A DNA stretch of 64,000 nucleotides from a virus (Duplodnaviria > Heunggongvirae > Uroviricota > Caudoviricetes), in the IMG/VR virus record IMGVR_UViG_2728369393_000007; one strand, given 5' to 3'. The stretch's first letter is position 1, and the number at the start of each line of letters is the position of its first letter. The notes under the pieces were generated by a model. It was given only the letters and a program-made list of their open reading frames with translations, did no database searches and was not told the DNA's origin. The position numbers and the translations under genes are program-made. This document shows positions 17,294-54,171 of the stretch, one piece after another.

Positions 17294-19231
17294 GTGACTC
17301 TTAAACGGGCCTGTTCCCTGCTGACGGTGAAATCCTTCAGTGAGGATGAACGGGTGATCACCGGGATTGCGTCAACGCCTTCTCCGGATCGGGATGGTGA
17401 CATCCTGGAGCCGGAGGGGGCGGAGTTTGGCAGTACGATCCCGTTTCTCTGGCAGCATGACCATTCCCGCCCTGTAGGCCAGTGTACGGTGCGTCGGGTC
17501 AGGGAAGGGCTGGAAATCACGGCAATGCTGGTGAAGCCGGAGCCGGGGATGCCCTCCCAGATGGCAGCCCGGCTGGATGAGGCCTGGGCTGCCATTAAGA
17601 CCGGGCTGGTCAGGGGGCTTTCTGTGGGCTTCCGGCCCCATGAATACACTTATCTGGACGGAGGCGGACTGCATTTTCTGCGCTGGGAGCTGATGGAGGT
17701 GTCTGCCGTCACCGTGCCCGCGAATGCGGAATGCACCATCCGGACCATTAAATCTTTCGACCGCCCGTTTTCTGCCGCGTCCGGCAACCGGAGACCGGTG
17801 GTGAAAATCGCATCTTCTGCCGGCGCTTCGGCACAGTCAATAACCTCTTTTCATAAGGAAAAGTCAGCAATGAATACTGGTGAACAGATTAAAAGTTTTG
17901 AAAACAAGCGTGCGGCGCTGGCAGCCTCCCTTGAGGAGATCATGAACAAAGCCGCAGAGGAAGGCCGCACACTGGATGTGGAAGAGGAAGAGCACTACGA
18001 CAACACCGCAGCGGAAATCCGTCAGGTGGATGCGCACCTGAAGCGTCTGTGTGAACTGGAAACCAGTAAGGCCGCCACGGCACAGCCGGTGAAACAGGCC
18101 GGTAACGGGAATGTGGCCACGGTGGCTTCAGCGCCGGTGATCCGTGTTGAGCAGAAACTGGATAAGGGGATTGGCTTTGCCCGCTTTGCCAAATCATTGG
18201 CTGCGGCTAAAGGTGTCCGCTCTGAGGCCCTGGAAGTGGCCCGTCGTCAGTATCCGGATGACAGCCGTCTGCACCATGTTCTGAAATCGGCGGTGGGGGC
18301 AGGGACCACCACGGACCCGCAGTGGGCAGGCAGCCTGTCTGAATATCAGGAATATGCGCAGGACTTTATTGATTACCTGCGTCCGCAGACCATTATCGGG
18401 CGATTTGGTCAGGGCGGGATCCCTGCACTTCGTCTGGTGCCGTTCAATATCCGCGTGCATGCCCAGGTGTCCGGCGGTGCTGCCGGCTGGGTGGGGGAGG
18501 GTAAGGCCAGACCCCTGACGAAGTTTGATTTTGAGTCCATCACCTTCAGTCATGCGAAGGTGTCGGCCATTGCGGTACTGACGGAAGAGCTGATCCGCTT
18601 TTCCAGTCCGGCAGCTGATGCACTGGTCCGTAATGCGCTGGCAGAAGCGGTGGTGGCGCGTCTGGACACAGACTTTGTGGACCCGAAAAAAGCTGCAGTG
18701 GCAGATGTCTCCCCGGCGTCCATCACCCATGATGTGAAGGGCACGGCATCAACCGGTAACCCGGATGCGGATGCCGAGGCCGCGTTTGGCCAGTTTGTGA
18801 CGGCAAGTCTGCAGCCCACTGGTGCTGTCTGGCTGATGTCCAGCACGAATGCCCTGGCGCTGTCCATGCGTAAAAATGCGCTGGGTCAGAAGGAATATCC
18901 GGACATGACCCTGCTGGGCGGGACCTTTCAGGGGCTTCCGGTGATTGTCTCCCAGTATGTGGGTGACCAGCTGGTACTGGTGAATGCACCGGATATTTAT
19001 CTGGCGGATGACGGCGGTGTGGCAGTGGATATGTCCCGTGAAGCGTCACTGGAAATGCAGTCTGAGCCGGGCGGCGACAGCACCACACCGTCGCCGGTGG
19101 AGCTGGTTTCCATGTTCCAGACCGGCAGCGTGGCCATCCGTGCGGAGCGCTGGATCAACTGGCGTCGTCGCCGTACTGCGGCGGTGGCGGTGATCACCGG
19201 TGTGAACTACGGCAGTGCGTCCGGCGGCTGA
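17294..19231 (+). CDS. prohead protease - major capsid protein fusion (HK97 family)
   Basis: GTG with AGGAGG RBS; N-terminal protease-like block (…GLSVGFRPHEY…EVSAVTVPAN) and C-terminal HK97-type capsid block. Confidence 0.75.
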   Translation: MTLKRACSLLTVKSFSEDERVITGIASTPSPDRDGDILEPEGAEFGSTIPFLWQHDHSRPVGQCTVRRVREGLEITAMLVKPEPGMPSQMAARLDEAWAAIKTGLVRGLSVGFRPHEYTYLDGGGLHFLRWELMEVSAVTVPANAECTIRTIKSFDRPFSAASGNRRPVVKIASSAGASAQSITSFHKEKSAMNTGEQIKSFENKRAALAASLEEIMNKAAEEGRTLDVEEEEHYDNTAAEIRQVDAHLKRLCELETSKAATAQPVKQAGNGNVATVASAPVIRVEQKLDKGIGFARFAKSLAAAKGVRSEALEVARRQYPDDSRLHHVLKSAVGAGTTTDPQWAGSLSEYQEYAQDFIDYLRPQTIIGRFGQGGIPALRLVPFNIRVHAQVSGGAAGWVGEGKARPLTKFDFESITFSHAKVSAIAVLTEELIRFSSPAADALVRNALAEAVVARLDTDFVDPKKAAVADVSPASITHDVKGTASTGNPDADAEAAFGQFVTASLQPTGAVWLMSSTNALALSMRKNALGQKEYPDMTLLGGTFQGLPVIVSQYVGDQLVLVNAPDIYLADDGGVAVDMSREASLEMQSEPGGDSTTPSPVELVSMFQTGSVAIRAERWINWRRRRTAAVAVITGVNYGSASGG

Positions 19232-19275
19232 GTCTGATGAGGAGGGCGGGAGGTGAGAGCGTCCCGCAGTAACTG

Positions 19276-19497
19276 ATGGCAAAAATCCGATATCTGCAGG
19301 GTACACATGATGCCCGGCCCGGGGATATCCGGGATGTCGCACAGCCGTGTGCGGAGGTGCTGGTTCGCCTGAGGAAGGCGGAGTACATCACAGCGCGACG
19401 TCCGGTGGGTCAGAAAAAGAAACATGATGCGGAGCATAGCGAATGTGGAACTTTTTGCGACGAACCCGAAAAAACCAGAAATCAGGACGTGATGTAA
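19276..19497 (+). CDS. hypothetical small phage protein
   Basis: 73-aa ORF between capsid and portal; weak RBS; overlaps portal start by 55 nt. Confidence 0.25.
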   Translation: MAKIRYLQGTHDARPGDIRDVAQPCAEVLVRLRKAEYITARRPVGQKKKHDAEHSECGTFCDEPEKTRNQDVM

Positions 19498-20885
19498 AAG
19501 AGGTGGGCTGGACCAGCCTGTTTCAGGCGGTGGCTGAGCCCTTTGCCGGCGCCTGGCAGCAGGGTGTGAAAGCCGATCCGGAAAGTGTCCTCTCCTTTCA
19601 TGCGGTGTTTTCTTGCATTTCGCTGATATCCCAGGATATCGCCAAAATGCGGCTGCGCCTGATGCAGACGGATACACAGGGGATCCGCCGTGAAAAACGG
19701 CAGGGGGATATTGCCCGTCTCTGTCGTCGTCCCAATGCACAGCAGAATCGTATCCAGTTTTTTGAACTGTGGCTGAACGCCAAACTGCGTCACGGCAATA
19801 CGGTGGTGCTGAAAATCCGTAACTCCCGGGGGCAGATCAAAGAACTGCGTATTCTGGACTGGAGCCGGGTTGAACCTCTGGTGGCGGATGACGGCGAGGT
19901 GTTCTATCGCATCACGCCGGACCGGAACTGCGGGATCACGGAGGCGGTGACGGTGCCTGCCCGGGAAGTGATCCACGACCGGTTTAACTGTTTTTTTCAT
20001 CCGCTTGTGGGGCTGCCGCCGGTGTATGCCGCCGGGCTGGCGGCCACGCAGGGGCATCATATTCAGGAAAATTCGACGTCTTTTTTCAGAAATGGCGGCA
20101 GGCCGTCCGGGGTGATTGAGATCCCCGGCAGTATTACGGAAGAAAATGCGAAAAAACTGAAGAGCAACTGGGACAGCGGGTATACCGGCGAAAATGCGGG
20201 GAAAACGGCCATTTTGAGCAACGGGGCAAAATACAACCCCACGACGTTTTCACCGGTGGATGCGCAGACGGTGGAACAACTGAAGATGACCGCTGAAATT
20301 GTCTGTTCGGTGTTCCGTGTCCCGGCCTACAAGATTGGCGTTGGCCAGCCACCTTCCAGTGACAACGTGGAGGCGCTGGAGCAGCAGTATTATTCCCAGT
20401 GCCTGCAGACGCTGATTGAGTCCATTGAACTGTTACTGGATGAGGCGCTGGAAACGGGGGAAAACGAGAGTACGGAGTTTGACGTCACCACGCTGCTGAG
20501 AATGGACAGCGAACGGCGCATGAAAACGCTGGGTGAGTCGGTGAAAAATACGCTTCTCACGCCCAATGAGGCCCGTAAACGTGAGAACCTGCCGCCCCTT
20601 GCCGGCGGTGATGCACTGTATCTTCAGCAGCAGAACTACAGTCTGGAGGCGCTGTCCCGTCGTGATGCCCGTGAAGATCCGTTTGCGTCGTCCGGGAAAA
20701 GAGTTTCAGCCCAACTGCCTGACGGCGCATCTGACGGTAATAAGGCAATCAGTGAAACAGAGCATGGTGCGGTGAAAGCGATGTTGAGGGGATACTGCGA
20801 AAATGACGGAACGGGAACTGTCCATTATTCGTGCACTGGGAGAAGAATTCGCCACGGTGCTGGCGGATTTACAGCGCACATTTGA
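19443..20885 (+). CDS. portal protein (HK97 family)
   Basis: Motifs …SFFRNGGRPSGVIEIPG…, …VFRVPAYKIGVG…, …TPNEARKRENLPPLAGGD; C-terminal 40 aa look atypical. Confidence 0.7.
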   Translation: MWNFLRRTRKNQKSGRDVKEVGWTSLFQAVAEPFAGAWQQGVKADPESVLSFHAVFSCISLISQDIAKMRLRLMQTDTQGIRREKRQGDIARLCRRPNAQQNRIQFFELWLNAKLRHGNTVVLKIRNSRGQIKELRILDWSRVEPLVADDGEVFYRITPDRNCGITEAVTVPAREVIHDRFNCFFHPLVGLPPVYAAGLAATQGHHIQENSTSFFRNGGRPSGVIEIPGSITEENAKKLKSNWDSGYTGENAGKTAILSNGAKYNPTTFSPVDAQTVEQLKMTAEIVCSVFRVPAYKIGVGQPPSSDNVEALEQQYYSQCLQTLIESIELLLDEALETGENESTEFDVTTLLRMDSERRMKTLGESVKNTLLTPNEARKRENLPPLAGGDALYLQQQNYSLEALSRRDAREDPFASSGKRVSAQLPDGASDGNKAISETEHGAVKAMLRGYCENDGTGTVHYSCTGRRIRHGAGGFTAHI

Positions 20886-23800
20886 GGAGAAGATGGCCGC
20901 GCAGGCACAAGCGTTTGAAGAGAAACTGGCTTCCCTGTCGGCGGTATTACAGAAGCATGTGACGGTGGATGAGGTACATCCGGTTCTGCAGGCGATGGTG
21001 GATGACGCTGCCACCGGACACCTGATTTCACTGGCTGATGAGTGGAGTTCCGTGAATGCCCGTCTGAAACAGGCGTCGCAGTCATCTGATGAATTTTCGT
21101 CATCACAGAAAGTGCTGATGGATATCAGCCAGCGGACAGGCACGGCATTTTCGGATAATGCGGCCCTGTTTGCCCGTTCGGCTGCCTCGATGCGTGAATA
21201 TGGTTACAGTGCCGGTGATGTACTGAAGGTGACGGAGGCCATTTCGACAGGGCTGAAAATATCCGGTGCCAGTACGGCAGAGGCGGGCTCGGTGATCACC
21301 CAGTTCAGCCAGGCGCTGGCACAGGGTGTGTTACGGGGTGAGGAATTTAATTCGGTCAATGAAAGCGGAGACCGGATCATACGTGCACTGGCTGCGGGTA
21401 TGGGCGTGGCCCGTAAAGACCTTAAGGCGATGGCGGACGACGGCAAACTGACGGCGGATAAAGTCGTTCCTGCGTTAATCAGCCAGCTGGGGGTATTGCG
21501 TGATGAATATGCCGCCATGCCGGAAACGGTCTCTGACGGGATCACAAAGGTGGAAAACGCCTTTATGGCCTGGGTGGGTGGCGCGAATGAAGCCAGCGGA
21601 GCGACGAAAACGCTCTCCGGCGTGCTGAACGGTGTTGCCGGTAATATTGATAATGTGGCAACAGCCGCGGGGGCGCTGGTTGCCGTCGGGGTGGCCCGGT
21701 ACTTTGGCAATATGGCCGCAGGCGTGGGAAAGGCCACCACAGAGCTGATCGCGGCGAAGTCCGGGACGGTTGCCCTTGCAGCCGCACAGGCAGATGCGGC
21801 TGTTCAGGTGCAGCGTAAGGCGGCAGCTGACGCGCTGGCGGCAGAACGTGCCTGGCAACTGGCACAGGCTGAACTTGCACTGGCCAGAAATAGCAGTGCG
21901 GAGGCGCTGCCCACACAGAATGCCGTCGCAAAACGCCGGGCCATGATTGTGGCCAATGCCGCACTGGTACAGTCGAATCAGGCGGTGGCGGCCTCGAGGA
22001 AGGCGCTGGAGAATGCCACGTCGGTTACGGGAATGCTGAAAAGTGGCGCGGCATCCCTGCTTTCGCTTGTCGGCGGGATACCCGGTTTACTGATGCTGGG
22101 AGCCGGTGCCTGGTACACGGTGTACCAGAATCAGGAACAGGCCAGGGAGTCCGCCCGTCAGTATGCATCGACGATTGATGAAATCCGGGCAAAGGTACCG
22201 GGAATGACCCTTCCGGAACTGGCTGATAATGAGGGTAAAACTCGCGAGGCACTGGAAGAGCAGAATCGTCTGATTGCTGAGCAGGAAAGTAAAGTCCGGG
22301 GACTGAAAACACAGATTGCTGACTATCAGCGCTGGCTGCAGGAAAATCCACAGGGTGGTTCAGGTGTGGAGATTATAACCCACGGCCTTGCGGAGGCAAC
22401 TGGCAAACTGGCGGTTGAACAGTCACGACTGACACAGATGCAGGAAAAGGCGAAGTCTGTACAGGAAGCTCTGGCGTCACTGGAATACAACCGTGTGGCG
22501 AGGATACGCGAGGAGGCAGCAGAGCAGAACAGAGCATACCAGGCATTGCTGCAGATGAATGTTCAGCATACGGAATTTAACCGTCTGCTGGGGCTGGGGA
22601 ATGAACTGCTTCAGCAGCGGCAGGGACTGGTGAATGTGCCGTTACGGCTGCCACAGGCCACCCTGGATGATAAACAGCAGAGTGCCCTGACAAAAACAGA
22701 GCGTGAGCTGGCCCTGTCCAGACTGAAAGGGGAAGAAAAAGAGCGTGTCCGGCTGGGGTATGCGGCGGATGACCTCGGTTTTGTGGGGGATCCGTATCAG
22801 GAGGCGAGACAGCGTTATATCAGTAATGCCCTGGAAGCCTGGCGCAATAACGAGGCGAATAAACCTAAATCCCGGGGTGGAAAATCAGAGCCGGAAAAAG
22901 CGGAAGACAGTTTTTCCCGGCTGCTTAAGCAGCAGAAGGCGCAACTGGCACTGGCCGGTCAGAACACGGAGCTGGCGAAGCTGAAGTACCAGACAGCGCT
23001 GGGTGAGCTGAAAACCCTGACGGAGATGCAGAAGCAGGAACTGCTGCGTAACGCGGCCCTGATTGACCAGCAAAAAATCCGGGAACAGTTGCGATCCCGG
23101 GAAGAGACCCTGAAGAATGATAATGTGGCTGCGCGTGCATCAAATGAAGCCGAACTGCTGGGGTACGGGCAGGGAGAACGAGCCAGGGAACGCATGCGGG
23201 AGTTGCAGCAGATCCGCGACAGCTTCCGCCAGAAGGATGCGGACCTTCAGTCTCAGTATCAGACCGGGGATATCAGTGAGGATTTTTACAGACAGGCACG
23301 GGCACAGAACGCGCAGTATCTGAGCGAACGCCTTAAGGACCAGGCAGCCTTTTATGCCGAATCGGATGTGCAGCGTGCGGACTGGCAGAAAGGGCTGCAG
23401 GAGGGATTCAGTAACTGGGTGGATAATGCGTCCGATTACGCCTCTCAGGCAGCACAGCTGGCGACTGAGGGGATTTCAGGACTGGTGAATAACATCACGG
23501 AGATGCTGAACGGAAACAAAGTGGAATGGCGCAACTGGGCCTCATCCGTACTGCAGGAAATCTCAAAAGTCCTTATGAATGCCGCGATTGTCAACGGGAT
23601 CAAGACGGCGGCAAACGGTATGTCCGGTGCAGGAGGATTTCTTGGCAGCATTGGTGACTGGCTGGGCGGTGCGGTGGTCAATGCAAAAGGCGGCGTGTAT
23701 ACCTCGGCAAACCTGAGCGCGTACAGCAACAGCATTGTGGATACGCCCACGTACTTTGCGTTTGCAAAAGGGGCCGGGCTGATGGGGGAAGCCGGACCTG

Positions 23801-24039
23801 AAGCCATTATGCCCCTGACCCGGGCGGCGGATGGCTCGCTGGGCGTACGCGCCGTGGGCAGTATGAACGGCAGTGCTGGTCTGGTGTATTCCCCGGTCTA
23901 CCACATCGCCATTCAGAATGACGGGGCTAACGGACAGATAGGGCCGGAGGCGGCAGGCAGTCTTGTGCAGCTGATTGACCAGCGGGTGCAGGCGGTGATG
24001 CTGTCCATGCGACGTGACGGAGGAATGCTGAGTGGCTGA
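20803..24039 (+). CDS. tail tape measure protein
   Basis: 1078 aa, Ala/Gln-rich coiled-coil centre, C-terminus …HIAIQNDGANGQIGPEAAGSL…RDGGMLSG resembling lambda H C-terminus. Confidence 0.75.
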   Translation: MTERELSIIRALGEEFATVLADLQRTFEEKMAAQAQAFEEKLASLSAVLQKHVTVDEVHPVLQAMVDDAATGHLISLADEWSSVNARLKQASQSSDEFSSSQKVLMDISQRTGTAFSDNAALFARSAASMREYGYSAGDVLKVTEAISTGLKISGASTAEAGSVITQFSQALAQGVLRGEEFNSVNESGDRIIRALAAGMGVARKDLKAMADDGKLTADKVVPALISQLGVLRDEYAAMPETVSDGITKVENAFMAWVGGANEASGATKTLSGVLNGVAGNIDNVATAAGALVAVGVARYFGNMAAGVGKATTELIAAKSGTVALAAAQADAAVQVQRKAAADALAAERAWQLAQAELALARNSSAEALPTQNAVAKRRAMIVANAALVQSNQAVAASRKALENATSVTGMLKSGAASLLSLVGGIPGLLMLGAGAWYTVYQNQEQARESARQYASTIDEIRAKVPGMTLPELADNEGKTREALEEQNRLIAEQESKVRGLKTQIADYQRWLQENPQGGSGVEIITHGLAEATGKLAVEQSRLTQMQEKAKSVQEALASLEYNRVARIREEAAEQNRAYQALLQMNVQHTEFNRLLGLGNELLQQRQGLVNVPLRLPQATLDDKQQSALTKTERELALSRLKGEEKERVRLGYAADDLGFVGDPYQEARQRYISNALEAWRNNEANKPKSRGGKSEPEKAEDSFSRLLKQQKAQLALAGQNTELAKLKYQTALGELKTLTEMQKQELLRNAALIDQQKIREQLRSREETLKNDNVAARASNEAELLGYGQGERARERMRELQQIRDSFRQKDADLQSQYQTGDISEDFYRQARAQNAQYLSERLKDQAAFYAESDVQRADWQKGLQEGFSNWVDNASDYASQAAQLATEGISGLVNNITEMLNGNKVEWRNWASSVLQEISKVLMNAAIVNGIKTAANGMSGAGGFLGSIGDWLGGAVVNAKGGVYTSANLSAYSNSIVDTPTYFAFAKGAGLMGEAGPEAIMPLTRAADGSLGVRAVGSMNGSAGLVYSPVYHIAIQNDGANGQIGPEAAGSLVQLIDQRVQAVMLSMRRDGGMLSG

Positions 24040-24373
24040 GATAAAAACGCTGCATCTGGTCCCGCGTGAAGGGATGCAGGTGAGTGAGAAGCCGTCGGTG
24101 GTGAGGGTGCGGTTTGGTGACGGTTATGAACAGCGCCGCCCCACAGGGCTGAATCCTCAACTGAAGACGTTTCAGGCGGTGTTCCGGGTGACGGATGAGT
24201 CAACCCGGTGCTGGCTGGATGAATTTTTATCCTGGCATGGTGGTTACCGTGCCTTTTTATGGCGACCGCCGAAACATAACCGGATGGTCAGGGTGGTATG
24301 CCGTGAGTGGAGCGTCACGGATAACGTCCGGTACAGTGATTTCAGTTGTACGATTGAGCAGGTGGTGAACTGA
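24032..24373 (+). CDS. minor tail protein M
   Basis: …VVRVRFGDGYEQRRPTGLNPQLKTFQAVF… resembles lambda M; GTG start overlapping tape-measure stop. Confidence 0.8.
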   Translation: MAEIKTLHLVPREGMQVSEKPSVVRVRFGDGYEQRRPTGLNPQLKTFQAVFRVTDESTRCWLDEFLSWHGGYRAFLWRPPKHNRMVRVVCREWSVTDNVRYSDFSCTIEQVVN

Positions 24374-25071
24374 TGCAGGACATTCATGAAGAAAGTCTGA
24401 ACGAGTCGGTTAAATCAGAGCAGTCACCGCGGGTGGTGCTCTGGGAAATTGACCTGACGGTGCAGGGTGGTGAGCGGTATTTTTTCTGCAATGAGCTGAA
24501 TGAAAAAGGGGAGCCGGTCACCTGGCAGGGGCGGAAGTACCAGGCATACCCGATTGACGGCAGTGGCTTTGAGATGAACGGGAAGGGCAGCAGTGCCAGA
24601 CCGTCGATGACGGTGTCCAATCTGTTCGGTCTGGTCACCGGGATGGCGGAAGACCTGCAGAGTCTGGTGGGGGCCACGGTGGTCCGCCGCCGGGTGTATG
24701 CCCGTTTTCTGGATGCGGTGAATTTCGTTGCGGGCAATCCGGAGGCAGACCCGGAGCAGGAGCTGAGTGACCGCTGGGTGGTGGAGCAGATGTCGCAGCT
24801 GACAGCCATGACGGCCTCGTTTGTGCTGGCCACACCGACCGAGACGGACGGAGCGCTGTTTCCCGGTCGCATCATGCTGGCGAACACCTGTATGTGGGAT
24901 TACCGGGGAGAGGAGTGCGGTTTCACCGGCGGGGCGGTGGCGGATGAGTTCGACAACCCCACCACGGATATCCGGAAGGACAGATGCAGTAAATGCATGC
25001 GCGGGTGTGAGATGCGCGGCATGGTGGCTAATTTCGGCGGTTTCCTTTCCATTAATAAACTTTCGCAGTAA
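24373..25071 (+). CDS. minor tail protein L
   Basis: 232 aa with C-terminal Cys cluster; ATG overlaps M stop. Confidence 0.8.
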   Translation: MQDIHEESLNESVKSEQSPRVVLWEIDLTVQGGERYFFCNELNEKGEPVTWQGRKYQAYPIDGSGFEMNGKGSSARPSMTVSNLFGLVTGMAEDLQSLVGATVVRRRVYARFLDAVNFVAGNPEADPEQELSDRWVVEQMSQLTAMTASFVLATPTETDGALFPGRIMLANTCMWDYRGEECGFTGGAVADEFDNPTTDIRKDRCSKCMRGCEMRGMVANFGGFLSINKLSQ

Positions 25072-25081
25072 ATCCCGTTTT

Positions 25082-25882
25082 ATGACACAGACTGAATCAG
25101 CGATTCTGGCGCATGCCCGGCGGTGTGCGCCAGCGGAGTCGTGCGGCTTCGTGATAAGCACCCCGGAGGGCGAACGGTACCAGCCCTGTGTGAATGTCTC
25201 CGCAGAGCCGGAGGCGTATTTTCGTATTGCACCGGAAGACTGGCTGCGGGCAGAGATGCAGGGGGAGATTGTGGCACTGGTCCACAGTCATCCCGGTGGT
25301 CTGCCCTGGCTGAGCGAGGCCGACCGGCGGCTGCAGATAAAAAGTGCACTGTCCTGGTGGCTGGTCTGCCCGGGGGACATTCATAAATTCCGCTGTGTGC
25401 CACATCTGACAGGACGGCTCTTTGAGCACGGGGTGACGGACTGTTACACGCTGTTCCGGGATGCCTACCATCTGGCGGGAATTGATATGCCGGATTTTGA
25501 GCGTGAGGATGACTGGTGGCGTAACGGTCAGAACCTTTACCTGGACAATATGGCGGTCACCGGCTTTTACCGGGTGCCCCTGTCCTCTGCACAGGCGGGC
25601 GATATCCTGCTGTGCTGCTTTGGCGCATCGGTGGCCAATCATGCCGCCATTTACTGCGGCAACGGTGAACTGCTTCACCATCTGCCTGAACAACTGAGTA
25701 AACGGGAGAGGTATTCCGAAAAATGGCAACGACGAACGCATTCAGCCTGGCGTCACCGCCACTGGCACGTATCTGCCTTCACGGGGATTTACAACGATTT
25801 GGCCGCCGCCTCAGCCTGTACCCGAACACGGCGATTGTGGGGCTGCAGGTGGATGCGGAGCAGTTTGGCGGTCAGCAGATGA
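25082..25882 (+). CDS. tail assembly protein K (JAB/MPN + NlpC/P60-like)
   Basis: …EIVALVHSHPGG… and …GVTDCYTLFRDAYHLAGI… motifs; 3' end altered by the I::J deletion. Confidence 0.75.
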   Translation: MTQTESAILAHARRCAPAESCGFVISTPEGERYQPCVNVSAEPEAYFRIAPEDWLRAEMQGEIVALVHSHPGGLPWLSEADRRLQIKSALSWWLVCPGDIHKFRCVPHLTGRLFEHGVTDCYTLFRDAYHLAGIDMPDFEREDDWWRNGQNLYLDNMAVTGFYRVPLSSAQAGDILLCCFGASVANHAAIYCGNGELLHHLPEQLSKRERYSEKWQRRTHSAWRHRHWHVSAFTGIYNDLAAASACTRTRRLWGCRWMRSSLAVSR

Positions 25883-28615
25883 CGGTGAACTACCATATCC
25901 GCGGTCGCATCATCCAGGTACCGTCAAACTATGACCCGGAAAAACGCACGTACAGCGGCATCTGGGACGGCAGCCTGAAACCGGCATACAGCAACAACCC
26001 GGCCTGGTGCCTGTGGGACATGCTGACTCACCCGCGCTACGGCATGGGAAAACGTCTGGTGGCGGCGGATGTTGACAAGTGGGCGCTGTATGCCATCGGG
26101 CAGTACTGCGACCAGACGGTCCCGGATGGTTTCAGGGGCACAGAGCCGCGGATGACCTTTAATGCGTACCTGTCACAACAGCGTAAGGCGTGGGACGTTC
26201 TCAGTGATTTCTGCTCGGCGATGCGCTGTATGCCGGTATGGAACGGCCAGACGCTGACGTTCGTTCAGGACCGCCCGTCGGATGTGGTGTGGCCGTACAC
26301 CAACTGCGATGTGGTGGTGGATGATAACGGCGTGGGGTTTCGCTACAGCTTCAGCGCCCTGAAGGACCGCCACACGGCGGTGGAGGTGAATTACACCGAC
26401 CCGCAGAACGGCTGGCAGACCTCCACTGAACTGGTGGAAGACCCGGAAGCCATACTGCGCTACGGACGCAATCTGCTGAAGATGGATGCGTTCGGCTGTA
26501 CCAGTCGCGGTCAGGCTCATCGTGCCGGACTGTGGGTGATAAAGACCGAACTGCTGGAAACGCAGACGGTGGATTTCACGCTCGGTCACAGGGGCTGCGT
26601 CACACACCCGGTGACATTATTGAAATCTGTGATAACGACTATGCCGGGACCATGACCGGCGGACGTATCCTGTCCATCGATGCCGCCAGCCGCACCCTGA
26701 CACTGGACCGTGAGGTGACCCTGCCGGAGACAGGTGCCGCCACGGTGAACCTGATTAACGGCAGCGGTAAGCCGGTGAGCGTGGCCATCACTGCACACCC
26801 CGCGCCGGACCGGATACAGGTCAGCACCCTGCCTGATGGTGTGGAGACATACGGTGTATGGGGACTCTCCCTGCCGTCACTGCGTCGTCGCCTGTTCCGC
26901 TGTGTCTCCATCCGGGAAAACACGGACGGCACCTTTGCCATCACGGCGGTGCAGCACGTACCGGAAAAGGAAGCCATCGTGGATAACGGGGCCAGCTTTG
27001 AGCCGCAGTCAGGCACCCTGAACAGCGTCATCCCTCCGGCAGTGCAGCACCTGACGGTGGAGGTGAGCGCAGCTGACGGTCAGTATCTGGCGCAGGCGAA
27101 ATGGGACACGCCGCGGGTGGTGAAGGGTGTGCGCTTCAGCCTGCGCCTGACCAGCGGAAGCGGAGAAGACAGCCGTCTGGTGACCACCGCCATCACCGCG
27201 GATACAGAGCACCGTTTCAGCGGTCTGCCGCCGGGGAATACACCCTGACGGTCAGGGCGATTAACAGTTATGGCCAGCAGGGCGAACCGGCCACCACCAC
27301 GTTCAGGATTTACGCACCTGCGGCACCCGCCTCGATTGAGCTGACGCCGGGTATTTTCAGATAACGGCGGTCCCGCGTCTTGCGGTGTATGACCCGACGG
27401 TACAGTTTGAATTCTGGTTCTCAGAAAAACGCATCACGAACACGGCACAGGTGGAAACCTCTGCCCGTTATCTGGGTAGCGGCAGTCAGTGGAGTGTATC
27501 CGGCCCGCACATTAAGCCCGGGAAGGATTTCTGGTTTTACGTGCGCAGCGTCAACCTGGTGGGGAAATCTGCGTTTGTGGAAGCCAGTGGCCGGGCCAGC
27601 AATGATGCAGAAGGGTATCTGGGGCTGTTTCGGGAAAAAATAGGAAAACTGCATCTGGCTCAGGGGCTGTGGGAGCTGATAGACAACAGCCAGCTTGCGG
27701 ATGAGATGGCGGAGATGAAGACCACCATCACCGAAACCCGCAATGAAATCACACAGACGGTCAGTAAAACGCTGGAAGACCAGAGCGCCACCATTCAGCA
27801 GATACAGCGCGTGCAGTCAGGCAGAAGAGAACGCTGCAAATGCTGACACTTCAGCAGGGGATGCATCGGAGTCAGCCCGGCAGGCGGCAGAAAGTGCAGC
27901 CTCAGCAAAGCAGTCAGAGGAGGCGTCCTCGTCCTCGGCCTCTGAGGCCGCTCAAAAAGCCAGTGAGTCATCACAAAGTGCAGCAGAAGCTGAATTGTCA
28001 AGAAAGACGGCAGAAAGTGCAGCCGGTAATGCAGCCAGGGATGCAACGACCGCAGCAGAAAAAGCCCGGGAGTCAGCAGAAAGCGCACAGTCAGCGGAAC
28101 AAAGCAGGATAGCGGCGGAAGAAGCCGTAAACAGAATCCCCACAGTGGTGGGGCCACCCGGGCCAAAGGGAGAACCGGGGCCCGCGGGTCCTCAGGGGCC
28201 GAAGGGAGATAAAGGAGAGCGGGGAGAGACCGGGCTGACAGGAAATGCAGGTCCACAGGGTCCAAAGGGAGATACCGGTGCGGCAGGCCCGGCAGGCCCA
28301 CAGGGACCGAAAGGAGAAACAGGTGCGGCTGGCCCGGTGGGGGCAACCGGACCTCAGGGGCCGAAAGGCGACCCGGGGGAGACACAAATACGGTTCCGTC
28401 TGGGGCCGGGAAACATTATTGAGACAAACAGCAATGGCTGGTTCCCGGATACAGATGGCGCACTCATCACCGGACTGACCTTTCTTGACCCCAAAGATGC
28501 CACACGGGTTCAGGGTTTTTTTCAGCATTTGCAGGTCAGGTTTGGTGACGGGCCGTGGCAGGATGTCAAGGGGCTGGATGAAGTGGGCAGTGATACAGGC
28601 AGAACAGGAGAATGA
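25723..28615 (+). pseudogene. I::J fusion and frameshifted host-specificity protein J / collagen-like tail fibre
   Basis: First 33 codons are gene I (MATTNAFSLASPPLARICLHGDLQRFGRRLSLY) fused in frame to J interior (PNTAIVGLQVDAEQFGG…); frameshifts near 26586, 27237, 27349 and ~27830; 3' part carries Gly-X-Y collagen-like repeats. Confidence 0.65.
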
Positions 28616-30129: not shown

Positions 30130-31452
30130 TTAGACTCTTGTTTCTTGGATTATATCAACGGTATCAACATAATTTGATGGGTTATGATGTGGTGAGTTAT
30201 TGCTTTCGATATTGATGACCACATCCTCTGGATTTGGATGCCGTTGTCCAACAGATACACCTTCTTCCATTGCGCGTATATCAGCCCCTGTGGCATGTTC
30301 AATATCTGCTTTATTTGGGAAAATGGCACCTTCTCTTGCATGCCACCATATACGAGGATAGTCAGTGAATCTGGCCTCTCCAAACTCGGCCTTGTTTAAA
30401 TCAGCCAGTCCAAGAGTAGTACCTGCCCACCATAAAATAGTGTCTGGCTTTAATCCGGGGGTATTATACTGTATGGCATGCCCCGCTGCTTGCCCAACCA
30501 TTGCACCGATATGAGGACTTAACATTGGATCTGTACCAGTAAATCTGGATACTGCAAATCCCCCTACAGCACCAAGCGCATTTGCGGCAGCATTGGTAAG
30601 AACGGCATATTTAGTATTAGGGTTATCTAAATCCCACTTGAAATGTGCGCCAAACTCCAGCCCTAGAGTTGCCTGTAGTGGAGATGCACCATATTTAAAA
30701 TCTGCTTCTCCCGGTCTGATCACCCACTCTTCAGTATAATTTGCTTTGGGGCCATCAGGAGTAAGAGGAGTTTCTCCAACAAGCTTCCATCCATTTTCAG
30801 TTTTGACTATAGGAAGTTCCACACCATGATTACGAACTACTTGAGCTGTTAATCCAAACCATGGTATTGGGTCTTTTGACGCGGTGGTTACCGTCGAAGT
30901 AGTGGCTGATGCAATAGTGGATGCAGCAGTCGATACAGTGGTTGGTATATTGCTGTTGCTTAATGCATTTTTTAATGGACCAGGAAGGTCTTTAAAATTA
31001 ATACCTATTTCATCATGCAAAGGGAATATCTGTAAAAAATAATTACCTGATGTAGGATGAATATCTGGTTTTACAATGTTTAGCTGGACACCATATTTAC
31101 CAGAGATACCCGGAACGGTGCTGGGTATTTCTAATGCCATCTGAGAGACATTGAATAAACCAAACATATCCAATGCTTTTTTTCCTGCAGAGCCTTCTTC
31201 AAGATGAGGTGCAAGATATTTATCCAGCCCAGAGAGCAGACCTTCATCTTTTATCAAGCTCAGTAGAGCTGTTGTTTCACCGCATTCCGGTGCATGTCGC
31301 TGCATATCCTCTGGGATATGAACAACAAATCCCGTTTCGCATCCATTAGGTAATTCGGATTGCGGTATTTGTGTAGGGGACGTTTGTTCTGCGTGATGAT
31401 GTCGATTGTTTTGTGTGGTGATTCCGGATGTTACGATCGGTTGAATGTTCAT
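30130..31452 (-). CDS. nleA: type III secreted effector NleA/EspI
   Basis: 440 aa MNIQPIVTSGITTQNN… with C-terminal PDZ-binding ETRV. Confidence 0.9.
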   Translation of the reverse strand: MNIQPIVTSGITTQNNRHHHAEQTSPTQIPQSELPNGCETGFVVHIPEDMQRHAPECGETTALLSLIKDEGLLSGLDKYLAPHLEEGSAGKKALDMFGLFNVSQMALEIPSTVPGISGKYGVQLNIVKPDIHPTSGNYFLQIFPLHDEIGINFKDLPGPLKNALSNSNIPTTVSTAASTIASATTSTVTTASKDPIPWFGLTAQVVRNHGVELPIVKTENGWKLVGETPLTPDGPKANYTEEWVIRPGEADFKYGASPLQATLGLEFGAHFKWDLDNPNTKYAVLTNAAANALGAVGGFAVSRFTGTDPMLSPHIGAMVGQAAGHAIQYNTPGLKPDTILWWAGTTLGLADLNKAEFGEARFTDYPRIWWHAREGAIFPNKADIEHATGADIRAMEEGVSVGQRHPNPEDVVINIESNNSPHHNPSNYVDTVDIIQETRV

Positions 31453-31835
31453 GATAAATCCTTATTGCATGTTTATATCCATTAATAATATCAATCCATT
31501 GATATTATTAGTGTCACATATCCGATGTGGACAGCTTTAATATATAGCTGTTTGAATGCTTGATTGATGTGACTTAGATCTCAAAATTAAGTTGTTAAAT
31601 TTACCAGTTTATCGCTTGAACACTTAAAATAAATTATAAATCCTTCTGTTATTGTTTTTATAATTCAAATTATTGTTGGTTGTATAACTTGATTACATCT
31701 TTACTCTAAGTGTTATAAATATTTTATACTGATATTAGTTTTATTATATATATTCTTAATGAAAATGAGCATAAAACTAAGACATATAATGCTTGGCAGC
31801 TTTATGCTCTTCTGATTGGCTGTATGTTTGATGAC

Positions 31836-32040
31836 AAAAAATTAGCGCAAGAAGAAAAAATCACCTTGCGCTAATGCTCTGTCTCAGGTCACTAATCACA
31901 CCTAACTCATTGATTAATTGTGACTCTAAATGTAGTGTTTTGTCGCGTTTTGCAGTATGTTATTTAATCTATTATATGAATAACATAATGATTTTTAATG
32001 TATTTTTGTAATTTACTCTCCTTCTGACATGGAAGTTGTT
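31836..32040 (+). repeat. junction repeat R2, copy a
   Basis: TGATGACAAAAAATTAGCGCAAGAAG…GCGCTAATGCTCTG…AGGTCACTAAT recurs at 35503-35700. Confidence 0.5.
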
Positions 32041-32107
32041 CGTTCAAAATCTTATTAAATATCAAGTTGTTAAATCTGGTAAGTCATTATTGGTCAAAAT
32101 AAAATCA

Positions 32108-33094
32108 TTATCCGATTTCAATTTTGTCCCACTCCCGCTCGCGACTGTCCCTATAATGCGCCGCCATTGAATCAGATTTATGTCCAAGAAGACGTTGTGC
32201 AAACTTGTAGCCAATCTGGTTCCGATATAGCCTCGCGGACAGACTACGTAGTTCATGAAATGTCGGTGGGTCTCCATCAAACGAGATCCCGGATGCATTT
32301 CGCGCCTTTGTTAAATACCGTGATACTGTGGCTGGAGAAAGTGGTTCGTGATAGGTTGATGCGATTATTGTTTCACTGCTGCTGGCCTCCCTGCATTTCT
32401 GTAGTGTATCAACCAGTGAGATGTCGAGTGCGTCAATGGTTAGAGCCAGCGGAATGGCAATTTTGGCTCCTGTTTTACTCTGTCCAATGTGAAGATGACC
32501 ATCGTTTATGTCTGACCACTTCATTCTGCACAAATCGCCCACTCTCTGCCCTGTAACGACAGCTAAATCCATTGACAGCCTCAGCCAGATGGGGAGGTGC
32601 TCAGCAGCATGGTAAATAGCGACATACTCATTAGCTGTCAGCCTTGAGCGCCTTACTTCTGACTTTGCTGCACGGGTTGTTGTTACTGGATTCGTTGCCA
32701 CATGCCCCTCGGCTATTGCCCCTCGAAAAACGTCAACAAGGGTTGACCTGATTACTCTTGCGGAAACCGCTTTACCTTCTGCGACGTAGGTGTTTAGCAT
32801 TGCTGCCACCTCTTTCGTTGATATGTCAGTGAGCGGTTTGTCCGGCAATTTTCTTCGAATTGCCCTGATTTTGCTGGCGTAGTCGAGTAATGTTTTCGGC
32901 TTGCTCCCCCTCTAGCTGAGGATTGTTTCATATCGATCAAGCCACGTATGAAGAGTGATTGAGTCAGTGCCTTTAACCCTGTCCAGCAATGATTCGTGCC
33001 CACTTTCGCTGAAAAGCTCAATGTTGGTGTGAATGCTTCTGAAATTGCTACTCTTCTGTCTCTTCCCAGCCCGAACTCTTTTTTCGTCCTCGGG
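32108..33094 (-). pseudogene. int: lambda-type tyrosine integrase, decayed
   Basis: C-terminal catalytic half intact (…HELRSLSARLY…LLGHKSDSMAAHYRD…); upstream part has a 1-bp frameshift and in-frame TAG (plus 32912-32914); N-terminus replaced at ~33095 by repeat R1. Confidence 0.75.
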
Positions 33095-33228
33095 TCAGTG
33101 TGTAGTAAGACCGCTGCAAATCCTGCGTGCTGACGGGAAGTGGGAAAATATTGGCGAAATGAAGTAACCCGATAGCTTCACAAAAACCGGAGTCCGGCTC
33201 CGGTTTTTGTTGTCATGTACGGGGGATG
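33095..33228 (+). repeat. junction repeat R1, copy c
   Basis: Matches 28812-28945 including terminator hairpin. Confidence 0.7.
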
Positions 33229-33273
33229 TCTGTTAGGAATAATTAGATAGGTTTATTTTGAAGGTTGAAATGT

Positions 33274-34185
33274 ATGTTATCGCCCTCTTCTATAAATTTG
33301 AGATGTTCATGGAATTCTTTAACCAGAAACCTGACTTCGCCTGATAATCGTGTTTTATCCTCTGTAAGGGATGCTGCTGTTCACTCTGATAGCGGGACGC
33401 AAGTAACGGTTGGCAACAGAACATATCGTGTTGTGGTCACTGATAATAAGTTTTGCGTTACAAGAGAAAGTTATAGTGGTTGTTTTACTAATCTGTTGCA
33501 CAGGTTGGGATGGCCTAAGGGAGAGATTAGCAGAAAAATTGAGGCTATGCTGAATACATCGCCAGTGAGCACGACTATAGAAAGAGGCTCTGTTCATTCG
33601 AACAGACCTGATTTACCTCCAGTGGATTATGCGCAGCCGGAGTTACCTCCAGCGGATTATACTCAGTCAGAGTTGCCGAGGGTTAGCAACAATAAATCAC
33701 CCGTGCCAGGTAATGTTATTGGTAAAGGTGGTAATGCTGTCGTGTATGAAGATATGGAAGATACAACAAAAGTGTTGAAGATGTTTACTATATCTCAAAG
33801 CCATGAAGAGGTGACAAGCGAAGTTCGTTGTTTCAATCAGTATTATGGTTCCGGGAGTGCAGAGAAAATATATAATGATAATGGAAATGTTATTGGTATT
33901 AGAATGAATAAAATAAATGGGGAATCTCTTTTGGATATTCCATCATTACCAGCACAAGCTGAACAGGCTATTTACGATATGTTTGACAGACTGGAGAAAA
34001 AAGGAATTCTTTTTGTTGATACAACAGAAACAAATGTTTTATATGATCGTATGAGAAATGAATTTAATCCAATAGATATATCATCTTATAATGTTTCTGA
34101 TATTTCATGGAGTGAACATCAAGTCATGCAATCTTATCACGGAGGAAAGCTGGATCTTATTAGTGTAGTATTAAGTAAGATATAA
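33274..34185 (+). CDS. nleH: type III secreted effector NleH (OspG-like kinase)
   Basis: MLSPSSINLRCSWNSLTRNLTSPDNRVLSS… kinase core, C-terminal SKI. Confidence 0.9.
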   Translation: MLSPSSINLRCSWNSLTRNLTSPDNRVLSSVRDAAVHSDSGTQVTVGNRTYRVVVTDNKFCVTRESYSGCFTNLLHRLGWPKGEISRKIEAMLNTSPVSTTIERGSVHSNRPDLPPVDYAQPELPPADYTQSELPRVSNNKSPVPGNVIGKGGNAVVYEDMEDTTKVLKMFTISQSHEEVTSEVRCFNQYYGSGSAEKIYNDNGNVIGIRMNKINGESLLDIPSLPAQAEQAIYDMFDRLEKKGILFVDTTETNVLYDRMRNEFNPIDISSYNVSDISWSEHQVMQSYHGGKLDLISVVLSKI

Positions 34186-34250
34186 TATTTTTATCCAGAT
34201 ATATTAGTTGCAATAATGTTTATGGATTTATTTGTTAAGGGGGTTTTGAT

Positions 34251-34820
34251 ATGTTACCAACAAGTGGTTCTTCAGCAAATCTTTATTCATGGATGTATGT
34301 ATCAGGAAGAGGTAACCCTTCGACTCCGGAATCAGTAAGTGAGCTTAATCATAATCACTTTCTTTCTCCTGAATTACAAGATAAACTTGATGTTATGGTC
34401 TCTATATATTCATGTGCCAGAAATAATAATGAGCTTGAGGAAATTTTTCAAGAGCTAAGTGCTTTTGTAAGTGGGCTGATGGATAAGAGAAATAGTGTAT
34501 TTGAGGTGAGAAATGAAAATACTGATGAGGTTGTCGGAGCGCTGAGGGCGGGAATGACGATAGAGGATAGGGATAGTTATATCAGGGATCTTTTTTTTCT
34601 GCATTCATTGAAAGTAAAAATTGAGGAAAGTAGACAAGGCAAAGAAGATTCGAAATGTAAAGTTTATAATCTGCTATGTCCGCATCACTCTTCAGAGCTA
34701 TATGGTGATCTACGAGCAATGAAATGCCTCGTGGAAGGATGCAGTGATGATTTTAATCCTTTTGATATTATTAGGGTACCAGATCTTACTTACAACAAAG
34801 GATCTTTACAATGTGGATGA
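34251..34820 (+). CDS. nleF: type III secreted effector NleF
   Basis: 189 aa MLPTSGSSANLYSWMYVSGRG… ending LQCG. Confidence 0.9.
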   Translation: MLPTSGSSANLYSWMYVSGRGNPSTPESVSELNHNHFLSPELQDKLDVMVSIYSCARNNNELEEIFQELSAFVSGLMDKRNSVFEVRNENTDEVVGALRAGMTIEDRDSYIRDLFFLHSLKVKIEESRQGKEDSKCKVYNLLCPHHSSELYGDLRAMKCLVEGCSDDFNPFDIIRVPDLTYNKGSLQCG

Positions 34821-34866
34821 TTAGAGGCCTGTGAGCCTGTTTAGGATTCTGTGTAAATGCCTTTTC

Positions 34867-35501
34867 TTAAAAGTGACCGTCAAGACGGTCATCAAACTCG
34901 ATAATAAAGCGGCTCATTGCCATTCGCCAGTCCCTTAACGGCATTGTCCATTTCTGTGACGCGGCCTGGATTGCCAGCCACACCACTTTTTTTACTGACT
35001 CGTCCGTCGGGAACACCTTGCGTTTCCTGATGGCATGCCGGATCACACTGTTCAGCGACTCGATGGCGTTCGTTGTGTAGATCACTTTGCGGATATCTGC
35101 CGGATAAGCGAAAAACGTCGCCAAGTTAGTCCAGTTTGACAGCTAGCACCGGCTTATCTGCGGATAGCGGCAGTCCCAGGCCGCAGCAAACGCTTCCAGT
35201 GCCTGCTGGCCTGCCTCTTCTGTGGGAGGCTAATCGCTTTCAGGTCGCGAGTGACGGCTTTGTATTCCTTCCATGACACGAAGCGCATGCTGTTGCGCAC
35301 CATATGCACGATGCATAACTGGATGCGGGCCTCTGGGAATTCTTTCAGGCCATCCACACAGGCGATGAGGATATCGTTCAGACCGCGGTTTTTCAGTTCA
35401 GTCAGCACATTGAACCAGAAATTCGCCCCTTCATTTTCGGCCAGCCGCATCCCCAGGAGCTCTTTCTGACCTGCGATATTGATGCCCAGTGCTAGGAACA
35501 T
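34867..35501 (-). mobile_element. IS256-family transposase remnant (N-terminally truncated, internally disrupted)
   Basis: Two ORF pieces (…GINIAGQKELLGMRLAENEGANFW… and …YTTNAIESLNSVIRHAIRKRKVFPTD…); truncated where repeat R2 copy b begins. Confidence 0.65.
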
Positions 35502-35502
35502 T

Positions 35503-35700
35503 TTTATGACAAAAAATTAGTGCAAGAAGACAAAGAATCGCCTTGCGCTAATGCTCTGAAACAGGTCACTAATATCATCTAAATAGTTGACTCATAGTGA
35601 CAGCATGTGTTGTGTCTTGCAGTATTATATAGCCTATTATTTAGATTGAAGCCATCATAATCTATTGATGTTAATGGTTTTTTATTGTTTGTTGTTCGGC
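35503..35700 (+). repeat. junction repeat R2, copy b
   Basis: See 31836-32040. Confidence 0.5.
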
Positions 35701-36976
35701 TTTTTATACTAATTTGAGCGAAACAAAAAGATAAAAAGTTGTTTTTCGTGTCTTTAAGTGATACCAGATGGTATTGCGCTAAATGTACCAATGGGTATAC
35801 CAAGAGCACTAAAAACAAAGGGGCAACCACTTTGTAACCCCTTGATTATTTGCAGAAGCGCAGAAAATCGAACTCTGGAACCCTTTCGGGGCATCCTTTT
35901 TCAAGAATGAAGAAAAAAATAACTAAAAAATCAAGTTGTTAGGAAGTTATTCATGGCTAGTGTACCAACTCTTTTCTGGGCTAATAGCTATGATTTGTTT
36001 GTATTATTTGTCTCTGTCTCTATTATTTTTGACATCCATGCGACTTCTGATATTGATAATCTCAGTTGTGGAGTTCTGTCTGCGCTTCCGGGAGGACGCA
36101 TATCAAAACTACAGGATCTTCTGTTAAACACTGTAAAGCCATCTACATTGCATGTTGTTGAGTCTAAGATACAATTTTTAGTAGATGATTTATCTGCTAT
36201 AGGCCTAGATATTTCAGGTTGATGCCAAGTGTGTCCTGAAAAAATACTTTTTATTGAAAATGGCATTTTTATCCTCACATTATGTCTTTCTCTTATAGTG
36301 CAATTTAATGTATTTAGAAACATTAAACTATGAATCTAAAAAGGCTACGCAGAGTACTGTTACACTTTAACAAATCATATTTACCACTCTGGAAATGGGA
36401 TGGCTGGTTCATAAAATAATGAGTCTTTTTCAACGGTTGTTACATTGGTGTACTGATGATTATGCCTTGTCGCTAAGAGCTACCATAACCGTACAGCGTG
36501 ATTCATCCATGGCGAATAAATCGACTGATAAATCCCCCTGAGTTTCAGCTCTTGCTGTTGGACCTTGCCCGTTTCGCTATGGAACGCGTACCAGCTAGAG
36601 AATATTATTCGTTCTCCTCCAATGTTACGCAAGTTTTGTAAACGGTAACCAATCGTGATTAGTCCTGCATGTAACGGACATCAAGCTGTCTGGTTGATTT
36701 TTATTGCCAGCAGTTCGAGAGAGCAGACAACTGCGTCCGATGGAAAAATGGGCACGACAGGGTATTCAGGCAACCTCGCTGAGGAGGCTTATGGTACAGA
36801 TTGTAATGTGAAGTATAAAACGTTAAAAATTCCATTTTAGAAACTAAATAGCTGTAATATAAGTTCGATCTAATCTACTATTTTGACAGACAGATTGTAT
36901 CAAGAATTAGGGAGTATGAAATAGATGGCAATAACTAGTAAAATTAATTTTGCAACATTTAAATCGAACCATACAG

Positions 36977-46810: not shown

Positions 46811-47530
46811 CTAACCAAATCTGTTGATATTGAATGGTACAGATGAGATTACTTTTGACTGGATATAGAGCAGCGCCATTCCCTCTTTTTCGATGCTCCA
46901 TGGCTGATAGTTGGGATTGTCTGATAAGACCATGATCTTGCTTCCAATTTTTTGAAGTCGTTTGACGTAACATTCGCCATCAAAGCAAAATGCATAAATG
47001 CCATCGCCGTCAAAGTAAGTTACTGTTTTATCTAAAAACAGTAAGTCTCCCGGGGAGATTGTTGGGGCCATGCTGTCCCCTCTGGCGTTACCGATTTCTA
47101 TGTTCTTGAATGCTCTGTTACCGACCAGGCGGCGGGCATATTCAGGATCAAGTTCTATTGAGCGTACTACATCAATTAGATCTCCCCGTACATGAGTTCC
47201 GTCGCCGCAACTGAATTCAACATCCAGTACATTGAACACAACGCTGTCTTCTCTTGTATGGTGTTTTTCAGCTGAAGAGAATGTCGATGAGGCATCTTCA
47301 CCCAAAAACCAGGATTGTGGATAACCACTAATTACTGATAGCTGTGCAAGTTTATCGCTTCTGGGAAACGTCTTTCCTGTAGTCCAGTATTGTACTGATT
47401 GCGCGCTTACACCCAGCTTACGGGCTAGTTCAGCCTGACTCCAGCCTTTCGTTTTCAGCATCATTGCTATCCGATTTTCTGTGCTTTTTATATTCTTCAT
47501 GGTGAGTTCCTGTCGAAGCTTTATACACAT
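46811..47530 (-). CDS. cI: CI-type repressor (HTH_XRE + S24 LexA-like peptidase domain)
   Basis: …GWSQAELARKLGVSAQSVQYW… HTH and …GDSMAPTISPGD…VKRL… Ser/Lys dyad; start may be the internal ATG at 47500. Confidence 0.8.
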   Translation of the reverse strand: MCIKLRQELTMKNIKSTENRIAMMLKTKGWSQAELARKLGVSAQSVQYWTTGKTFPRSDKLAQLSVISGYPQSWFLGEDASSTFSSAEKHHTREDSVVFNVLDVEFSCGDGTHVRGDLIDVVRSIELDPEYARRLVGNRAFKNIEIGNARGDSMAPTISPGDLLFLDKTVTYFDGDGIYAFCFDGECYVKRLQKIGSKIMVLSDNPNYQPWSIEKEGMALLYIQSKVISSVPFNINRFG

Positions 47531-47632
47531 AAATATTAACTTGATTTTAGTGTATTCGATCCTTTTGAAACTTGCATGTTAATTTATTCTTGATGTATTC
47601 TTGATTTGTAAAGTTAATGTTGGAGCTGCGCT
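47531..47632. promoter_or_regulatory. divergent cI/cro promoter-operator region
   Basis: AT-rich intergenic with repeated TTCTTGAT / ACTTGATTTT motifs. Confidence 0.45.
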
Positions 47633-47890
47633 GTGATAAAACTGAATGATTACGACATGTTGCGTAAATTGATCCCTCAAAACGCCATAGCGAGATACAT
47701 CGGTGTTACGCCACAAGCGGTGAATCTGTGGTTTTCTAAAAACTCCGTTCCTTCTCGTTTTGTTTTACGGGTGTGTGAATTGGTTGAATGGAAGGTTACT
47801 CCGCATGGGTTAAGACCTGATCTATACCCTTATCCCGAAGATGGAATTCCTGATTCGTTACGAAAATCAAACGGTATTACCAGAGATTAA
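47633..47890 (+). CDS. Cro-like / YdaS-family DNA-binding protein
   Basis: GTG with GGAG RBS; …AIARYIGVTPQAVNLWFSKNSVP… HTH. Confidence 0.55.
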   Translation: MIKLNDYDMLRKLIPQNAIARYIGVTPQAVNLWFSKNSVPSRFVLRVCELVEWKVTPHGLRPDLYPYPEDGIPDSLRKSNGITRD

Positions 47891-47971
47891 AGACTGACTG
47901 TCACAAGCAGTAATTCACGATGAATACGTTTTGGCGTGAGTTCTGAAATGTCATCCTCAAGGAGCAATCAG

Positions 47972-50574: not shown

Positions 50575-50584
50575 GGTGACAGCG

Positions 50585-54152: not shown

Positions 54153-54171
54153 TTTTTTGTGGAGAAAGTTG

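Follow-up and report, generated by a model that had tools for sequence, protein, structure and literature searches.

PPompW prophages have been described (Nakamura et al. 2021, PMC8112680) as lambda-like elements that lie beside ompW, carry an exchangeable effector locus (nleA, nleH, nleF, nleG and espM), have become defective through insertion sequence (IS) insertion and deletions, and have another prophage integrated downstream. Every PPompW prophage analysed in that work appears defective, packaged PPompW DNA was undetected in the strains tested, and E. coli strain CFSAN004176 is named as one in which an Stx2a phage is integrated into the PPompW (PMC8112680). A further trait of the family is a 21-bp attB-in-prophage sequence of which Stx phages make use. 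Here we analyse a 64,000-nucleotide stretch of DNA, the window (IMG/VR virus record IMGVR_UViG_2728369393_000007), and in particular a late operon in which a portal gene is followed directly by a tape-measure gene. The region is ~100% identical to E. coli O145:H25 CFSAN004176 (NZ_CP014583.1, the sister record), where ompW lies directly upstream of the truncated integrase gene and the IS600 preceding window position 1. PGAP annotation of this record, together with Pfam and PHROG searches of the open reading frames (ORFs) in the window, gives a lambda-like layout of O/P-like replication genes, Q, lysis, terminase, head and tail genes. PGAP also places nleA, nleH1-2, nleF, nleG and espM1 downstream of tail-fibre remnants; the prophage carries paa as well, and a second prophage, with an integrase and an excisionase, begins directly after the effector locus. 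The element, prophage A, is a PPompW-type lambdoid prophage.

Its late module is 95–98% identical in DNA to that of the long-tailed Stx phages BP-4795, Lys8385Vzw, 2851 and Stx2 phage 1717. The shared order of these BP-4795-type phages is terS, terL, protease-capsid fusion, a 73-aa ORF, portal, ORF2, then tape measure, M, L, K, I and J, and BP-4795 is reported to encode an NleA-like effector, as the prophage here carries nleA. They differ in keeping a nine-gene portal-to-tape-measure interval, including the full tape-measure start, and intact terL, I and J genes, all of which are deleted or disrupted here; of that interval the window keeps only codons 1–69 of ORF2. Prophage A also resembles the defective lambdoid pool of O157 Sakai (Asadulghani et al. 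2009, PMC2669165), effector carriers whose morphogenesis genes have decayed through IS insertion and deletion. In the Sakai pool, however, packaging of some prophages by complementation has been demonstrated. The head-gene organisation of Sakai Sp6, Sp9, Sp10 and Sp12 is slightly unlike that of lambda (PMC2669165).

A deletion joins ORF2 to the tape-measure gene

In the ORF list the portal ORF (19443–20885, 480 aa) leads directly into the tape-measure ORF (20803–24039, 1078 aa) with an overlap of 83 nt and with no connector, tail-tube or chaperone genes between them, as the original prediction had read it. As intact reference we used the Stx1a phage Stx1_14040 (LC567819, locus L001), in which the late genes run terS, terL, protease-capsid fusion, portal (454 aa), ORF2 (461 aa), gp6-like connector, head-completion, HK97 gp10-like, tail-completion gp17, Ig-bearing major tail, G, T, tape measure (1080 aa), M, L, K, I and J; the identities of the deleted genes were taken from Pfam searches of this relative. 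When its late proteins were compared with the whole window by tblastn, homologues of seven genes (gp6-like connector, head-completion, HK97 gp10-like, tail-completion gp17, major tail, G and T) were not found anywhere. The search agrees with the ORF list, with the caveat that the stop at 20885 and the overlap itself are private to the window, and it rejects a move of the missing genes to another part of the window. The G, T and H genes of the second prophage (~55.7–59.5 kb) are lambda-type and belong to a different module from those deleted.

Comparison with intact relatives had been proposed as the way to locate the deletion endpoints, and it places them precisely. By blastn, window 16127–21010 corresponds to L001 3001–7885 and window 21009–21717 to L001 12284–12992, giving a single clean deletion at window 21009/21010 that joins L001 7885 to 12284–12286. 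In a three-way alignment with the nearest relative on each side of it, the junction reads GATGACGCTG followed by CCACCGGAC, and the two parents share TG only. Measured against L001 the loss is ~4.40 kb, and against L005, another relative, it is 4.23 kb, a gap that corresponds to one 162-bp repeat of ORF2. ORF2 was lost from codon 70 to its end, seven genes went entirely, and the tape-measure gene lacks its first ~80 codons. The adjacency of portal and tape measure is therefore confirmed as a structural difference seen at nucleotide resolution against more than 1,200 genomes, rather than a statistical pattern.

The protein comparisons give the same boundary. By BLASTP, residues 1–69 of the 1078-aa chimera are ORF2 residues 1–69 of L001 (64/69 identical, 93%) and residues 71–1078 are residues 81–1080 of the L001 tape measure, so that the fusion is in frame from ORF2 codon 69 to tape-measure codon 80/81. 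Across the junction the peptide reads VLQAMVDDA-ATGHLISL. The suggested profile search of the N-terminus returned no tape-measure match there: residues 1–71 match positions 1–71 of phrog_8767 and positions 455–525 of phrog_2271, a 'portal' profile, and PHROG tape-measure profiles match only further in. Pfam identifies TMP_3, Phage_HK97_TLTM and Tape_meas_lam_C in the same ORF. The original prediction had suspected that the tape-measure N-terminus derives from a junction, and this was essentially right. In the sister record PGAP already marks the portal-to-tape-measure span as a single pseudogene, a 'frameshifted portal'; this is a mislabel of two things, a portal gene that is intact in that record and an ORF2::tape-measure deletion chimera. 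Coordinates of the late-operon features are collected in Table 1.

Table 1. Features of the prophage A late operon in the window
Feature	Position	Strand	Evidence and remarks
Terminase small subunit gene, intact	13742..14305	+	tblastn 90% identity over 187 aa to L001 terS; PGAP in sister record
terL 5' fragment, aa 1–187	14302..14862	+	tblastn 100% identity to L001 TerL 1–187
IS600 (IS3 family) within terL, 3-bp GAA target duplication	14863..16126	+	rve/HTH_21 domains; PGAP IS600 family transposase
terL 3' fragment, aa 187–553; window-private 9-bp duplication 16461–16469	16127..17230	+	tblastn 98.9%; TerL_nuclease
Prohead protease-major capsid fusion, 645 aa, intact	17294..19231	+	Peptidase_S78 and Phage_capsid; phrog_617; 98.8% to L001
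Small conserved ORF, 73 aa, between capsid and portal	19276..19497	+	phrog_829, E=7e-36; in all relatives examined
Portal ORF	19443..20885	+	Phage_portal E=4.8e-81 (Pfam); residues 1–450 native, 451–480 out-of-frame read-through
G-run, 4 G in window, 5 G in all comparators	20784..20787	+	Shifts frame past native TGA 20804–20806
ORF2 remnant, codons 1–69; gives chimeric ORF its start codon	20803..21009	+	BLASTP, PHROG
Deletion junction with TG microhomology (2 nt)	21009..21011	.	blastn breakpoints, three-way alignments
Tape-measure gene without first ~80 codons, in frame with ORF2 stub	21010..24039	+	BLASTP; Pfam tape-measure domains
Minor tail M (24032–24373) and L (24373–25071), intact	24032..25071	+	Phage_min_tail, Phage_tail_L; 95% to L001
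K-like (JAB/NlpC-P60) tail gene, into second junction ~25819/25820	25082..25819	+	tblastn K residues 1–246/247
Internal J fragment, both termini absent; end approximate	25820..27810	+	Phage-tail_3, Ig_J; PGAP

Two routes to the deletion were considered and rejected: an IS-mediated event, since the junction holds no IS sequence, and homologous or repeat-mediated recombination, since the microhomology is only 2 nt. The left breakpoint falls 8 nt before the 162-bp repeat array of ORF2, and the right side has no similarity to that array. With 2 nt of microhomology and neither an IS nor a repeat at the junction, one illegitimate-recombination or replication-slippage event at TG is the most likely mechanism. 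The fusion would have come out in frame by chance (1 in 3), and the ATG of ORF2 thereby became the start of a 1078-aa chimeric ORF.

We hold it nearly certain that this is the late operon of a PPompW-type prophage in its native capsid–portal order, in which a deletion of ~4.2–4.4 kb, probably by illegitimate recombination, fused an ORF2 stub to the tape-measure gene and which has decayed further. No evidence contradicting the deletion was found, and three points limit the account. The exact deleted length depends on how many 162-bp repeats the ancestor's ORF2 contained; the one-nucleotide difference in the portal G-run, described below, may be a genuine mutation of the window and no error; and defective lambdoid prophages are sometimes packaged with the help of co-resident prophages (PMC2669165), which limits any failure to form particles to the element alone. 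In broad terms this is ordinary prophage decay, already known in a family published as defective.

Distribution of the junction and order of events

Using a 301-nt probe centred on the junction, we found end-to-end coverage in one of 5,426 complete E. coli genomes, that of O145:H25 CFSAN004176, while ~1,250 genomes match the left half or the right half only; none of 50,697 phage records spans the junction. An exact-sequence look-up of the 1078-aa chimera returned at least eight further contigs from NCBI assemblies, several of them common to multiple samples. All five of the further NCBI assembly loci inspected have the junction, a 454-aa portal and no substitutions relative to the window. The junction is thus specific to one O145:H25-like clone. 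The O145:H28 PPompW records among the phage sequences searched, in contrast, keep the full portal-to-tape-measure interval, and the exact breakpoint could serve as a lineage marker for the clone.

The window has several private homopolymer indels, oddities typical of unpolished long-read assemblies, and on these grounds the adjacency might be put down to a collapsed or mis-joined long-read assembly of a genome that in truth keeps the 4.4 kb. However, the junction 28-mer GGTGGATGACGCTGCCACCGGACACCTG is present in six other assemblies, including short draft contigs that resemble independent short-read assemblies, and the junction has no repeat able to cause a collapse. The junction is real, and we give an assembly artefact almost no chance of being the explanation.

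Two of the loci that carry the deletion (L007 and L009) have an uninterrupted terL encoding a 550-aa TerL. The deletion is therefore older than the IS600 insertion that splits terL in the window, an interruption the original prediction had read correctly. IS600 entered terL later, in a sublineage. A separate 1.4-kb deletion took I and the start of J.

Portal C-terminus, ORF2 and native gene order

The original prediction also suggested that the last 40 aa of the portal may derive from the junction. This does not stand. The portal ORF ends 124 nt short of the junction, and what is aberrant is the last 30 aa, through a 1-nt difference in the G-run at 20787. By BLASTP, portal residues 1–450 match the 454-aa portal of L001 (447/450 identical). 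In each of the six comparator assemblies of the element the run is GGGGG, and a 454-aa portal overlaps the next gene by ATGA, as in L001, where the ORF2 ATG overlaps the portal TGA. The four-G run, which lies 16 nt ahead of the ORF2 ATG, occurs in the window only and explains the 30 aberrant residues as well as the stop at 20885 and the overlap of 83 nt.

The GGGG is most likely a long-read assembly error, since the window holds other private G/C-run indels. Private indels at 20787, 26583, 27232 and 27348 (1–2 nt, almost all in short G/C runs) are joined by a 9-bp duplication at 16461–16469; they extend the portal ORF and split J into several ORFs, the last three lying in G-runs of the J fragment. 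Indels within 16–28 kb are private relative to all comparators that cover them (the sister RefSeq record and up to five further assemblies), and those of the second prophage (38697–55048) were compared with the sister record alone. Up to window position 55732 the differences from the CFSAN004176 record consist of 1–2-nt indels, one 9-bp duplication, one substitution and one inverted 906-bp segment. CFSAN004176 and its sister CFSAN004177 were assembled from PacBio RS II P4/C2 reads, an early chemistry (PMC5567499), and the indel pattern of the window looks like unpolished early PacBio consensus error. At position 17416 it is the RefSeq record that deviates, with one G fewer and hence a 'frameshifted' capsid there; the capsid gene of the window is intact.

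A programmed −1 frameshift joining portal to ORF2 at the G-run was considered, an idea that arose from phrog_2271, an 859-position 'portal' profile lying over both genes, and from PGAP sometimes calling the pair one frameshifted gene. No signal for it was seen: the zero-frame codons are AGG GGG ATA rather than an X XXY YYZ heptamer, and the ordinary ATGA stop–start overlap of portal and ORF2 in the relatives examined (L001 and L005) weighs against it.

ORF2 (L001 7678–9063) contains a 162-bp (54-aa) tandem repeat, with 4.3 copies in L001, and differs in length among phages. Its product has 461 aa in L001 and 245 aa in Lys8385Vzw, and the L005 gene is shorter than that of L001 by one repeat (162 bp). 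Its annotations vary between 'portal protein', 'hypothetical protein' and a PGAP merger with the portal as one 'frameshifted' gene. Pfam gave only sub-threshold matches to ORF2 and a PDB sequence search gave no match. The 'portal protein' label, which finds no support in a Pfam portal domain or in PDB, may be a propagated annotation; a head fibre or decoration protein is a possible role.

The capsid gene does lie ahead of the portal gene in the window, as the original prediction had observed. The reversal was, however, misread there as a sign of defect. Capsid before portal is the order in ~90 deposited Stx and related phages that hold the full capsid-to-tape-measure interval (among them BP-4795, 2851, 1717, YYZ-2008 and many Stx1a, Stx2a and Stx2c phages), and in loci of ~1,250 E. 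coli genomes. Lys8385Vzw has this gene order together with the full portal-to-tape-measure interval. After induction and purification it was seen by imaging to be a long-tailed siphovirus, and it proved able to lysogenise new E. coli host strains (PMC6986202). The order is thus native to the whole phage family, neither a rearrangement nor a mark of decay. The refuting case named with the original prediction, an inducible phage sharing both order and adjacency, is thus half realised: an inducible phage with the order exists, and the portal–tape-measure adjacency was found in no such phage.

These data also bear on the scheme in which the head module was rearranged, with the capsid moved ahead of the portal and the endpoints placed in the portal C-terminus and the tape-measure N-terminus. 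The 30 non-homologous residues at the end of the portal and the N-terminus of the tape-measure ORF, which is not tape-measure in kind, would both agree with it. However, every member of the family has the order it seeks to explain, phages that were induced and proved infectious among them (PMC6986202); up to residue 450 the portal follows intact portals without a break, and what comes after is the effect of a G-run difference absent from all other assemblies; and the left endpoint is in ORF2, not in the portal. The rearrangement and the portal endpoint are thereby refuted, and we regard the scheme as extremely unlikely. The significance of these corrections is mostly one of annotation hygiene: capsid before portal should not be taken for a rearrangement, and a long portal C-terminus is more likely a homopolymer miscall than biology.

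Further decay, cargo and the neighbouring prophage

Downstream of the intact M and L genes, a second deletion of ~1.4 kb at ~25819/25820 joins L001 17083 to 18525 (blastn), with loss of I and of the J N-terminus; its breakpoint has a short microhomology beside a shared GAACACGGC motif. PGAP annotates the K-like gene as lacking its C-terminus, J as lacking its C-terminus too, and the HNH endonuclease and integrase as partial. With terL split, seven head and tail genes gone, the tape measure truncated, I and the start of J lost and the integrase truncated, prophage A is unable to package DNA or to build tails alone. The claim that it forms no particles on its own is borne out for the element by itself.

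The compaction could also be read as adaptive. Prophage A would then be a streamlined, satellite-like element that has retained its capsid, portal and distal tail genes and depends on a related helper prophage for connector and tail-tube proteins. In favour of this, genomes of these strains hold several related BP-4795-type modules each (the sister genome has four loci matching the portal region), defective O157 prophages are documented to complement one another (PMC2669165), and here the fusion kept the reading frame and left capsid, portal, M and L intact. The deletion, however, cuts through two genes instead of excising a module and takes the tape-measure N-terminus; the two ends of J and the whole of I are missing, the integrase is incomplete and an IS600 later entered terL; and packaged PPompW DNA escaped detection, as noted above (PMC8112680). 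The junction occurs in one clone whose assemblies are free of substitutions relative to the window, and this, together with the 1-in-3 prior for an in-frame fusion, leaves no argument for selection on the chimera. Adaptive compaction is in our view very improbable, and we infer instead that the chimera is a deletion product without function.

An equally slim chance attaches to the idea that the ORF2(1–69)::tape-measure(81–1080) chimera is expressed and acts as a dominant-negative tape measure against related BP-4795-type phages. The chimera keeps the ORF2 start codon, and the late operon still has a Q antiterminator gene upstream. Lacking the native N-terminus and the cognate G/GT chaperones, such a protein may poison tail assembly of co-resident or superinfecting BP-4795-type phages. 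If this were true, a product of decay would serve in phage defence or in prophage interference.

Position 1 of the window falls within a second IS600 copy (1–368), which lies beside the partial integrase gene and truncates the early region of the prophage. This copy and the one in terL are in opposite orientation and flank the entire early and lysis region; a recombination event involving both could invert ~14.5 kb.

Unlike the decaying phage machinery, the cargo genes are annotated as intact. The right-end cargo (~30130–41000) includes nleA, nleH1-2, nleF, nleG, espM1 and a gene for a DUF1076 protein, with IS remnants between them; paa, encoding an AcfC-family adhesin, is in the early–late junction region.

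The second prophage is of Stx2a type in CFSAN004176, and in the window it is without stx, lysis, terminase and head genes. At ~55732, within a DNA methyltransferase gene, the window parts from the CFSAN004176 record and continues straight into tail genes of lambda type (G, T, tape measure, M and L). An stx-less second prophage fits the published P01 prophage of CFSAN004177 (PMC5567499) and may correspond to it. Within this prophage, the 906-bp segment at 53247–54152 is the exact inverse of that in the CFSAN004176 record, with 100% identity. Its limits fall precisely on an internal, in-frame ATG and on the stop codon (TGA) of a DUF968 gene, and it gives a minus-strand ORF of 301 aa; start- and stop-codon boundaries of this kind are odd for a natural inversion.

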